A stretch of 64,000 nucleotides of DNA from Escherichia coli (GTDB lineage Bacteria > Pseudomonadota > Gammaproteobacteria > Enterobacterales > Enterobacteriaceae), in assembly GCF_030384885.1 (NCBI RefSeq), contig NZ_CP128613.1; one strand, written 5' to 3'. This document shows positions 58,686-61,141 of the stretch, piece by piece. Within the stretch, counting starts at the first letter, position 1; every line of letters starts with the position of its first letter. Below the pieces are notes generated by a model that made no database searches, was not told the origin of the DNA, and saw only the letters and a program-made list of their open reading frames with translations. The position numbers and the translations under genes were made by a program.

Positions 58686-59747
58686 TTATTTTTCGCTGGG
58701 CGTTTTGCCTTTTTGCAGCGTCTCTTTCACCTGACCGATAAGCTGACGACGGAAATCCCCGAGGCGAGGTTTGTCATCGTCAATCCACGGCAGCGGGCGG
58801 CAAAGCTCCATAGCTTTAATCCCCAGTCGTGCCGTCAGAAGTCCAGCACCAATCCCCTGAGCTGCCCGGGTAGACAAACGCGCAGCGAGATCTTGCGACA
58901 TCCAGTCCATCCCCACTTCGCGCACCAGTTCGCTGGCTCCGGCGAAAGCGATATTCAGCAATACCAGCTTAAACAGGCGCAAACGGCTGTAATATCCCAG
59001 TTCAATGCCATACAGCGTGGCGATGCGATTGATCAAACGCAGATTGCGCCAGGCGATAAATGCCATATCCACCAGCGCCAGCGGGCTAACGGCGATCATT
59101 AACGTTGATTCCGCCGCTGAGCGACTGATTTCGCGCCGCGCCTGGGCATCTAAAACCGGCTGGACCAGATGAGCATACAGGCTGACCACTTCACGATCGT
59201 TCTGCGTTTCATGGATTGAGGCATACCAGCGTTGCAGTGCCGGATGCGACTGGTCGATGCCCGCCTGCTGCGCCAGTTTTTCGCAGAATGCACGGCCTTT
59301 ACCCGTGCCGTGACTGTGCAACAAATCGCGCGCTTCGTCGCGTTCATGGGCGCGCTGTCGCAAGCGCCATAAACGCCGCCACTCTGTTACCACAGAACCT
59401 ACGCCAGCGCCGATAATCAATGCCCCAGCGGCACATCCACCCAGCGCTACCCAATCCTGAGTTTGCCAGGCATTCATCGTCCACTGCACGCCCTGCCCGA
59501 CAACGCTTGCACCAAACAGAGCCAACCCGCCCATCACCATTTTGCGCCACAGGCTGCGTTTCGGACGTAACGCTGCGTCCATCACCGCTTCAACTTGCCC
59601 CTCTTCTTCCTGCGCTTCGTCGAGCGTGGCCGGGGCAAAATTTTGCGCCTGATTTTCGTCAAAGGTCTGCTGCGCCCTGAATTTTGGATTCTGATCGACC
59701 TCCAGTGGACCGTCGAAATCAATACGTGGTTTTAACGGTTCGGTCAT
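58686..59747 (-). CDS. ycjF: DUF697-family inner-membrane protein YcjF
   Basis: 353-aa ORF with central TM segments; start overlaps the ycjX stop. Confidence 0.85.
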
Positions 59748-61141
59748 CGCAATTTATCTCCTATTAAAAATTCCAGCGCAGCATCAAGACGAATATGCGG
59801 CAGCGGTTTGTCGACATCCATCACCTGCGGACGAAACGCCTCAAACTGGAAGCCTTGCTTATCCCAGAACGCCTGACCAGGCAAACGTGCGGGAACTTCG
59901 CCAGGATAAACAGTGAGCGGTGCGCCATCGCTGAGTCGATTACCGCGCAGCGCCGGGATTTTCTCACCGTTAACATCAATAATGCCGCTGGTGGTCGCCT
60001 GAACTGACGCCAGCCCCAGGCAGTCCATGCTGATCCCTTCGAACGCCGCATTTTGCCAAGCATCCTGAATCAGTTGTTGCAGTAATGAAACCATATTGGC
60101 GTGCTGATCGATGGTCACATGGTCTGCTTTAGTGGCAGCAAACAATAGCTTATCGATAACCGGCGAAAACAAACGCCGGAACAGGGTTCGCTGCCCGTAG
60201 TGGAAACTTTGCATCAGCTGCGTCAGCGCCAGACGCATATCATTAAATGCCTGTGGCCCACTGTTGAGCGGTTGCAGGCAATCCACCAGCACAATCTGCC
60301 GATCAAAGCGCAGAAAATGATTTTTATAGAACCCCTTCACCACTTTCTCGCAGTAATAATTAAATCGTTCGCGCAGCATTCCGGCATTGGTGTGCTTGTC
60401 GGCCTGTGCAAGTTTTGATTCGCCCCAGGCATCGACATCTGGCCACGGGAAGAATTGCAGCGCGGGCGCACCTGCCATATCGCCCGGCAAGACAAAACGT
60501 CCAGGCTGAATAAAGTGCAGCCCCTGCTGTTTGCAGTGGTGGAGATAATCGGTCCATGCGGCCGCAATGTCTGCAAGACGGTTTTCGTCGGCAGGTGCTA
60601 GTGGGTCCAGCCCTTCGCACATCATTCGCCATTTTGCCGACCATTCGCCGCGCTGACCATTGAGTAAGCCCGTCATCTGGCGCGACCAGCTTAAATAGTC
60701 CTGCGCCAACATCGGCAAGTCGAGTAACCATTCGCCGGGATAATCCACTATCTCCAGATACAACGTGGAAGTGTCTTTGAAGTGACGCAACAGCGAATCG
60801 TTCGATTTATAGCGTAGCGCCAGGCGAATCTCACTGACGCCGCGTGTTGGGGTCGGCCAGGCGGGAGGATCGCCATATAACTGCGCCAGCCCTTCATCGT
60901 AGGTGAAGCGCGGAATGCCAAAGTCACGCTGGGGAATGCGTTTTACGCCCAGCAGGCGCTCTTCACGCACCGCACTTAATAGCGGCAAGCGTGCTCCGGC
61001 ATGAATATTGAGCAACTGATTGACCATCGCAGTGATAAACGCGGTTTTGCCGCTGCGGCTAAGTCCGGTTACAGCGAGGCGCAGATGTCTGTCGACACCC
61101 CGATTCACCAGCGCATTAAGTTCATTTTTAAGTCGCTTCAT
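59744..61141 (-). CDS. ycjX: P-loop NTPase YcjX
   Basis: 465-aa ORF with Walker A GLSRSGKT. Confidence 0.85.

Follow-up and report, generated by a model that had tools for sequence, protein, structure and literature searches.

The ycjX-ycjF operon of Escherichia coli: a known pair encoding a predicted GTPase and a predicted membrane protein, with comparative evidence for translational coupling

What do ycjX and ycjF do for the cell? The two genes are among the few strongly heat-induced members of the E. coli sigma-32 regulon without a physiological role, and their gene order ties them to the Psp membrane-stress system, which is important for Yersinia virulence; a function for the pair would close a gap in the maps of the heat-shock and envelope-stress responses. 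An earlier note on this DNA held that the function of the pair is not established. This is still so across the searchable literature, where both are treated as unknown-function or DUF genes without a robust phenotype (PMC3467454, PMC9239133, PMC7572479) and where the characterisation we found is only partial, being biochemical and structural. In the window analysed here, by which we mean the whole stretch of 64,000 nucleotides, ycjX occupies 59744..61141 (465 aa) and ycjF 58686..59747 (353 aa), both on the minus strand, as are all features described below. The locus is present in 5415 of 5426 complete E. coli genomes, where it is annotated as ycjX/ycjF and occupies a fixed site, and it is an already catalogued operon of the core genome. 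What we provide is accordingly not a new entity, but a sharper and testable picture of a known gene pair.

The gene names given in the earlier note are borne out by Pfam and NCBIfam profiles as well as by the annotation of E. coli genomes. YcjX matches Pfam PF04317 (DUF463) over the full length of the profile (E = 5.6e-182, 606 bits with a cut-off of 25; positions 1-443 of 443), while YcjF, a member of the YcjF family of inner-membrane proteins, matches both PF05128 (DUF697; E = 1.2e-55, 188 bits with a cut-off of 27.7) and TIGR01620 (E = 1.1e-129, 432.8 bits with a cut-off of 160; positions 3-329 of 329). Because of these profile matches the two are, as judged from sequence, real genes and not chance ORFs; for ycjX, the open reading frame, the genome annotation and matches to PDB entries point the same way.

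Three motif patterns of GTPases are found in YcjX. The G1 motif or Walker A P-loop (GxxxxGK[ST]) is the GLSRSGKT that had been pointed out before, and lies at residues 26-33 of the translation (61043..61066). The G3 or Walker B motif (DxxG followed by Glu) reads DYPGE at residues 133-137 (60731..60745), and the guanine-specificity motif G4 ([NT]KxD) reads TKAD at residues 337-340 (60122..60133); the [N/T]KxD definition of G4 is established for GTPases in general. G1 and G3 are invariant between the YcjX proteins of E. coli and Shewanella, and so are K338 and D340 of G4. Moreover, YcjX matches the PDB entries 6nz5, 6nz4 and 6nz6, named 'YcjX Stress Protein', at E about 1e-124 (phmmer; 2.6e-124 to 6nz5), and the modelled YcjX part superposes on 6nz5 with a TM score of 0.88-0.89 normalised to the target (Foldseek). 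The PDB entries of this Shewanella orthologue contain GDP and GDPCP. Because of the crystal structures of the orthologue (6NZ4, 6NZ5 and 6NZ6), YcjX is to be read specifically as a GTPase, predicted to be soluble and Ras-like (TRAFAC-type). The structures of the YcjX stress protein were reportedly the subject of a study by Tsai et al. (2019, J Mol Biol 431:3179). This work on YcjX is cited in PMC7680126 and PMC11237479.

YcjF, for its part, is predicted to be an integral membrane protein with a transmembrane helical hairpin at residues 66-121 (59385..59552). Hydropathy segments occur at about residues 70-88, 98-122 and 211-234, and the AlphaFold model of YcjF alone has long helices at residues 66-95 and 99-144 (pLDDT 94-97). 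The DUF697 domain covers residues 183-341 (58725..59201; Pfam envelope) and holds further hydrophobic helices; D200, D227, R234, Y246, G298 and R317 within it are invariant among 107 homologues. According to a remark in Pfam, GTPase domains accompany DUF697 in some proteins. When such fusions were looked for among the top 150 representatives, the longer homologues (P0197, P0242, P0230, P0267 and others) proved to be extended at the N-terminus by uncharacterised sequence only, and a second Pfam domain was not found in them. A PDB sequence search with YcjF gave no match at E <= 1, and no structural relative of YcjF pointing to an activity was found.

The two genes meet in an ATGA on the minus strand (59744..59747; TCAT in plus-strand letters), in which the ATG of ycjF overlaps the TGA of ycjX, at exactly the coordinates given in the earlier note. 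A Shine-Dalgarno sequence for ycjF, GGAGA, is placed inside ycjX, 9 nt before the ycjF ATG (59757..59761), and spans the Gly-Asp codons of the conserved C-terminal YcjX motif L/I-G-D-K-L; the string GGAGAYAAA is conserved across loci. These features were compared among 80 gammaproteobacterial species loci, with 595 relatives retrieved by the YcjX pattern PGEWLLDL. ATGA overlaps of 4 nt are more frequent in bacterial operons than any other class of overlap, and the arrangement could in principle reflect compact operon packing, with YcjX and YcjF acting independently and sharing only a promoter. Consistent with such packing, ycjX and ycjF are separated by inserted genes in several Pasteurellaceae and neither gene is lost, so strict coupling seems to be dispensable in these species. 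However, the exact ATGA overlap is conserved in 60 of the 80 species loci, including loci with YcjX identity as low as about 48%, and is therefore more than a chance feature here; it is kept despite variation of the last YcjX residue (R, K, S, T, L, V, I or A). Furthermore, the glycine within the Shine-Dalgarno sequence is encoded by GGA in 53 and by GGG in 8 of 61 loci and never by GGC or GGT, so that GGR is used at 61/61 sites as compared with 37% among all ycjX glycine codons.

The neighbourhood and co-occurrence analysis suggested in the earlier note also argues against simple packing. Our comparison shows that the two genes stay together almost without exception in the Gammaproteobacteria: ycjF directly follows ycjX in 72 of the 80 species loci, and a DUF463 gene sits immediately upstream of ycjF in 3/3 distant loci, whose YcjF homologues have 28-30% identity, with overlaps of 4 nt (L084 and L085) or 7 nt (L082). 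Taken together, the overlap, the Shine-Dalgarno codon and the variable last residue give good support to the translational coupling that had been claimed for this pair. They show that the ATGA overlap and the in-gene Shine-Dalgarno sequence would link the translation of the two genes, both features being kept by selection, and at the codon level the coupling is probably under selection through a synonymous choice that holds the embedded Shine-Dalgarno sequence. Packing of two independent genes is for these loci a highly improbable account.

A further indication of a joint role comes from the N-terminal cytoplasmic tail of YcjF, where conservation and a fused model single out residues 21-40 (59628..59687) as a predicted YcjX-docking peptide. 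The hydrophobic residues F23, F29 and F37, together with D30 and P39, are conserved, and the rest of the acidic tail is variable. When YcjF is modelled alone, residues 21-40 are mostly coil with a short helix at 31-34 and no strands (pLDDT 62-67). In the YcjX-G25-YcjF model, the same residues form short strands at 27-29 and 37-39 (pLDDT 85-86). The latter is a linker-fused monomer (AlphaFold; overall pTM 0.78) based on a MAFFT alignment with only 12 paired rows, built with trimmed YcjF-only rows. The ordering of the tail in this model suggests that the conserved motif may dock on YcjX, and it likewise disfavours two independent proteins packed into one operon. The specific 20-residue tail motif as predicted YcjX docking site is one of three points in which our analysis makes the picture more testable, along with the codon-level selection on coupling and the account of the separation from psp given below.

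Gene order beyond the pair points towards the phage-shock proteins. In 51 of the 80 species loci pspA/B/C are directly upstream of ycjXF, and in Yersinia, Serratia, Proteus and others the pspD and ycjX reading frames overlap; this linkage agrees with previous reports (PMC3041696, PMC3467454, PMC9239133). At the present locus, upstream of ycjX in the window are ycjW, ompG and ycjV, and no psp gene occurs within the whole window. Because psp adjacency is found in 51/80 related species, the psp link is taken to be ancestral and absent at this locus. The ycjM-ycjW/ompG sugar island sits between psp and ycjXF in E. coli, and insertion of this island best explains the separation. DUF463 is also present in 14% of genomes without Psp (PMC9239133). 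In Yersinia, robust phenotypes are described only for pspF, A, B and C (PMC3467454), and the literature holds no phenotype linking ycjXF to membrane integrity, which speaks against a switch working alongside Psp.

How the pair is expressed in E. coli gives a second line of context. A sigma-32-type promoter-like element, TTGATA-N13-CCCCCACAT, was read from the sequence at 61184..61211, where it ends 42 nt upstream of the ycjX ATG; it resembles the sigma-32 promoter pattern CTTGAAA-N13-15-CCCCATNT, the consensus used being TTGAAA/CCCCAT. With a custom pattern, such an element was found at equal distance in Escherichia, Citrobacter, Enterobacter and close relatives, and it was not found in the related loci where pspD overlaps ycjX. 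A generic scan for sigma-70 promoters and terminators around ycjX gave nothing meaningful. Published data on sigma-32 occupancy and heat response, which cover E. coli K-12 and BL21, report a ChIP signal of 2.9 at ycjX, equal to that of dnaK (PMC2996942), and an early heat response of both ycjX and ycjF (PMC7572479). The pair is also counted in the sigma-32 regulon and described as part of a ycjX-ycjF-tyrR transcription unit (PMC3041696, PMC2996942), and both genes go up in RNA and protein during phiX174 infection along with pspBCDG (PMC8125068).

That ycjXF in E. coli are preceded by a sigma-32-type instead of a psp promoter, and behave as classical early heat-shock genes, would also suit a different role, in which YcjX is a cytosolic heat-shock GTPase working on the ribosome, on translation factors or in proteostasis, YcjF is a mere tether or regulator or is functionally separate, and gene order alone has left behind the link to membrane stress and Psp. 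In the PDB, the fused YcjX-YcjF model indeed matches translational GTPases next after YcjX itself (eEFSec and EF-Tu; E = 0.02-1, TM 0.2-0.26). However, these matches fall mostly on the YcjX half of the model and represent generic G-domain similarity, and no recurrent ribosome-related neighbour gene was found in the 80 species loci and the three distant loci. That YcjX is paired with a membrane protein nearly everywhere, that the coupling is selected and that the YcjF tail is predicted to become ordered rather suggest that the partner is integral to the function, and we regard a cytosolic role of this kind as rather unlikely.

Downstream of the pair, on the same strand, is tyrR (56997..58538, 513 aa), the neighbour that the earlier note named. 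Its identity follows from the NCBIfam TyrR equivalog NF008085 (1054 bits) and from the annotation of E. coli genomes. A longer TTG-start tyrR ORF in the mechanical list of open reading frames was rejected, the real start being the ATG at 58538 (MRLEVF...). The ycjF-tyrR spacer of 147 nt (58539..58685) contains the palindrome TGTCAA-N6-TTGACA at 58609..58626, which we take to resemble the TyrR box consensus TGTAAA-N6-TTTACA. The conserved position of tyrR raises the idea that ycjXF serves TyrR, for instance by sensing the membrane or transport state for the regulation of aromatic amino acids. In favour of this idea, tyrR follows ycjF in the same orientation in 61 of the 80 species loci and within 400 nt in 43, a TyrR-like ACT-PAS-AAA+ regulator follows the DUF463/YcjF pair in the distant loci L082 and L085, and a terminator scan found no terminator-like site in the spacer. 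The three genes are reported as a co-transcript, the RegulonDB transcription unit ycjX-ycjF-tyrR quoted in PMC3041696, and have near-identical phyletic profiles according to the same paper. However, tyrR has its own upstream region with the TyrR-box-like palindrome, the ycjF-tyrR junctions are spacers of 80-360 nt and not overlaps, and conserved synteny by itself is weak evidence. We also know of no TyrR function that requires a GTPase, which counts further against a service to TyrR, and we consider such a role improbable.

The reading we prefer, and hold to be somewhat probable, is that YcjX and YcjF form a GTPase switch, anchored in the membrane and made in stoichiometric amounts, which works next to Psp under stress of the inner membrane. 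Ribosomes ending ycjX would re-initiate on ycjF and deliver both proteins in a fixed ratio, presumably because the two act as one complex. In YcjF, an acidic N-terminal tail in the cytoplasm would be joined to the transmembrane hairpin and the helical DUF697 domain, and the short conserved motif of this tail would recruit YcjX to the inner membrane. By cycling between GTP and GDP, YcjX might then switch the membrane-embedded DUF697 part, or the assembly of the complex. Judging from its genomic context, the module may serve inner-membrane stress maintenance in parallel to PspA/B/C, having ancestrally been the tail of the psp operon and having come, in Escherichia and close relatives, under its own sigma-32-type promoter, with a response to heat and envelope damage.

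A bolder version, which we put forward only tentatively and find more doubtful than not, makes YcjX-YcjF a dedicated GTP-driven machine for inner-membrane maintenance that works with the ESCRT-III-like PspA system. YcjF, with a fold that has no solved relative, would be the sensor or effector embedded in the membrane, and YcjX would dock on its conserved N-terminal tail, GTP hydrolysis remodelling or resetting YcjF. If true, the phage-shock response of Gammaproteobacteria would have a second arm that is nucleotide-powered and, in Escherichia and close relatives, rewired to sigma-32.

The nearest comparison is with Shewanella oneidensis YcjX (6NZ4, 6NZ5 and 6NZ6), an orthologue that aligns over the full length with 47% identity and shares the G1, G3 and G4 motifs; its structures belong to another species and were solved without YcjF, so they are silent on the membrane partner. 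The pspABCD-ycjXF operon of Yersinia enterocolitica shares genes, gene order and ATGA overlap, as seen in Y. thracica, Y. aldovae and Y. nurmii. An overlap of ycjX with pspD and the lack of a sigma-32-like promoter set the Yersinia operon apart from the E. coli window, in which the ycjW-ompG-ycjV sugar island precedes a ycjX with a sigma-32-type promoter of its own; these two Yersinia features imply that ycjX should there be driven by the PspF/sigma-54-dependent pspA promoter.

The DO-GTPase/GAP1 systems described by Kaur, Burroughs, Iyer and Aravind (2020, PMC7159879) resemble the pair in their TRAFAC-type GTPase, the Walker B Glu, a frequent transmembrane association and a proposed GTP switch. 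This likeness invites the view that YcjX-YcjF is a DO-GTPase-type anti-phage or conflict system, in which the GTPase would be a switch over a membrane-disrupting YcjF and lead to abortive infection. Indeed, a psp-linked GTPase has been assigned to the 'DO-GTPase family' (PMC11237479), the DYPGE of YcjX has the Walker B Glu that Kaur et al. give as a DO-GTPase signature, and ycjX and ycjF are induced by phiX174, although general heat and envelope stress account for their induction. However, ycjXF comprise a single GTPase and are devoid of a second paralogous GTPase, a zinc ribbon, a GAP1-like partner with three globular domains and variable effectors, the multi-domain partner and the effectors being defining features of those systems (PMC7159879); the downstream gene instead encodes a helical membrane DUF697 protein, by Pfam and model. 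Unlike mobile and patchy defence islands, the pair belongs to the core genome, is syntenic across orders and has constant neighbours (psp and tyrR) across the 80 species, and a PADLOC scan of YcjX and YcjF gave no defence-system match. An anti-phage role is therefore very improbable in our view. The membrane-remodelling large GTPases, namely the bacterial dynamin-like proteins LeoA and IniA as well as Mx, likewise count among the known systems nearest to YcjX-YcjF.

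On the minus strand of the window, the ycjX reading frame (465 aa; 59744..61141) ends within that of ycjF (353 aa; 58686..59747): the two share an ATGA at 59744..59747, read as TCAT on the plus strand, in which the ycjF ATG lies over the ycjX TGA, and a GGAGA Shine-Dalgarno sequence is placed inside ycjX, 9 nt upstream of this ATG (59757..59761, minus strand). The earlier note had described, with no strand given, a translationally coupled NTPase/membrane-protein pair overlapping at this stop/start beside tyrR; overlap and neighbour are both found as described, with tyrR following next in the same orientation. 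The tyrR reading frame properly begins with the ATG at 58538, in place of the longer TTG ORF of the mechanical ORF list. The ycjF-tyrR spacer holds a perfect palindrome, TGTCAA-N6-TTGACA (58609..58626, minus strand), which resembles a TyrR box and may be a site of tyrR autoregulation.

The match of YcjX to Pfam PF04317 (DUF463, YcjX-like) is full-length (E=5.6e-182). For YcjF two profiles match, PF05128 (DUF697; E=1.2e-55) and TIGR01620 of NCBIfam (E=1.1e-129). The Walker A motif GLSRSGKT, already recognized in the earlier note, occupies YcjX residues 26-33 (61043..61066, minus strand) and forms the G1 motif; because the translation also contains G3 (DYPGE) and G4 (TKAD), the designation NTPase can be narrowed to a predicted GTPase. 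YcjX is 47% identical to the Shewanella 'YcjX Stress Protein' (6NZ4/5/6, GDP and GDPCP complexes; E about 1e-124), on which its modelled portion superimposes with TM 0.88-0.89. A PDB sequence search with YcjF gave no relative. Of the 5426 complete E. coli genomes, 5415 carry the 2.9-kb ycjXF region, which is annotated as ycjX, ycjF, tyrR and ycjW. Region 58400..61300 is at least 99% identical in just one of these 5415, 95-99% in most and 90-95% in 1022, indicating either an uncommon E. coli lineage as source or an unusually divergent locus.

Gene overlaps of 4 nt are common and carry little meaning in a single genome. A one-genome-per-species scan gave 595 YcjX relatives, of which we consider the best 80 loci, all of them gammaproteobacterial. 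As for co-occurrence, which the earlier note had proposed as a check, 72 of these 80 have ycjF directly after ycjX, and 60 carry exactly the ATGA overlap. The non-adjacent loci are mainly Pasteurellaceae with unrelated genes between ycjX and ycjF, together with one truncated contig. For instance, an OmpA-like lipoprotein gene and a transposase-like ORF lie between them in one Pasteurellaceae locus (L066, 9453..11487) and a 303-aa opposite-strand gene in another (L079, 9433..10344), and several Haemophilus loci have no ycjF in the ycjX vicinity. The ycjF Shine-Dalgarno sequence coincides with the Gly-Asp codons of a conserved YcjX C-terminal motif, L/I-G-D-K-L, and its Gly codon in 61 loci is GGA (53) or GGG (8), never GGC/GGT, whereas GGR accounts for 37% of the Gly codons across these ycjX genes, a contrast (61/61 against 37%) that carries no formal probability as the loci are phylogenetically related. 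Although the C-terminal residue of YcjX differs between loci (R, K, S, T, L, V, I or A), the third base of its codon is invariably A, which keeps ATGA. Three YcjF homologues of 28-30% identity likewise have a DUF463 gene directly upstream (3/3), overlapping by 4-7 nt. This comparative pattern shows the overlap to be under selection here, and incidental operon packing, for which the commonness of such overlaps would speak, is very unlikely to account for it. We infer that ycjX and ycjF are translationally coupled; identity and coupling of the pair, taken jointly, are near certain.

Hydropathy analysis and an AlphaFold model from 107 homologues (pLDDT 85.8, pTM 0.74) are concordant on the layout of YcjF and bear out its predicted membrane nature: an acidic N-terminal tail of about 65 residues (low-confidence in the model), a transmembrane hairpin formed by helices (residues 66-121), a helical region in the cytoplasm and the DUF697 domain with further hydrophobic helices. 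DUF697 has six residues invariant among the 107 homologues (D200, D227, R234, Y246, G298 and R317). Residues about 268-291 (about 58875..58946, minus strand), among its more conserved stretches (AGASEL...D.G), are among the least confident in both models (pLDDT 55-58 alone, <50 in a fusion with YcjX) and may fold only with a partner, as an oligomer or in the membrane. This fusion, a single YcjX-(Gly)25-YcjF chain (pTM 0.78), was modelled from a rebuilt alignment that combined 12 paired rows with unpaired rows of each protein, an earlier alignment with some misplaced rows having been dropped. Tail residues 21-40 rise from pLDDT 62-67, mostly coil, in YcjF alone to 85-86 in the fusion, where two short strands (27-29 and 37-39) are predicted, and they include all conserved tail positions (F23, F29, D30, F37 and P39). 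Such a pattern would be expected of a short docking peptide adding strands to its partner. Beside this predicted docking, a cytosolic or translational role of YcjX seems rather unlikely.

The surroundings extend earlier surveys of the psp/ycjXF context (PMC3041696, PMC9239133, PMC11237479). In 51/80 species ycjX is immediately preceded by pspA/B/C; in Yersinia, Serratia, Proteus, Morganella, Rosenbergiella and others, the beginning of ycjX overlaps with pspD. The window contains no psp genes; ycjW, ompG and ycjV (61285..64000) occupy their position. Since pspFABCDE is immediately upstream of ycjX in Escherichia albertii (locus L002) and at a further locus labelled E. coli (L003), the most economical interpretation is that, in the lineage of E. 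coli, a sugar-utilisation island (ycjM-ycjW/ompG) entered between pspE and ycjX, apparently splitting an ancestral psp-ycjXF-tyrR order. Downstream, tyrR follows on the same strand in 61/80 species, at most 400 nt away in 43. The terminator scan gave no terminator-like site in the ycjF-tyrR spacer, consistent with a ycjX-ycjF-tyrR transcription unit (RegulonDB, as quoted in PMC3041696); a functional tie of the pair to TyrR, which this arrangement might suggest, is nevertheless improbable. Between tpx and tyrR, a 698-aa ORF (54863..56959, plus strand; annotated at about 680 aa as a 'hypothetical protein') has no match in Pfam, NCBIfam or PADLOC and is a rare accessory gene, occurring in 32/5426 complete E. 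coli genomes against 5415 for the flanking ycjXF-tyrR region.

Upstream of ycjX, TTGATA-N13-CCCCCACAT (61184..61211, minus strand), ending 42 nt before the ATG, resembles the sigma-32 consensus. This putative element occurs at identical distance in Escherichia, Citrobacter, Enterobacter and close relatives, and was not found among compared loci where ycjX is joined to the psp operon. A sigma-32 promoter fits with published data: ycjX ranks among the strongest sigma-32 ChIP targets, its signal (2.9) being equal to that of dnaK (PMC2996942), both genes are early heat-responsive (PMC7572479), and both rise in RNA and protein with pspBCDG upon phiX174 infection (PMC8125068).

Both genes have already been published, as have their adjacency, their psp association, their regulation by sigma-32 and the structure of YcjX. 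They are described as unknown-function or DUF genes in PMC3467454, PMC9239133 and PMC7572479, and non-polar ycjX/ycjF deletions in Yersinia gave no robust phenotype (PMC3467454), in keeping with the earlier note's remark that no function is established; its interpretation is supported. Our small additions are codon-level evidence for the Shine-Dalgarno sequence embedded in ycjX, a motif of the YcjF tail as predicted docking site, island insertion as explanation of the psp/ycjXF split in E. coli, and the lineage specificity of the sigma-32 element. Comparison of the loci shows a predicted GTPase gene and a membrane-protein gene kept together, with a selected stop/start overlap, across Gammaproteobacteria. 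YcjX and YcjF would be co-translated in a fixed ratio, and the YcjF tail would recruit YcjX to the inner membrane, where the complex may switch the DUF697 membrane domain in a GTP-dependent manner; it might act in inner-membrane stress alongside Psp and have been rewired to sigma-32 in Escherichia and its close relatives. We give this membrane-stress switch roughly even odds. A DO-GTPase-type conflict system is a very improbable reading: YcjX and YcjF have no PADLOC match, ycjXF is core-genome with constant neighbours, and it lacks both the GAP1-like partner and the variable effectors that characterize DO-GTPase/GAP1 systems.
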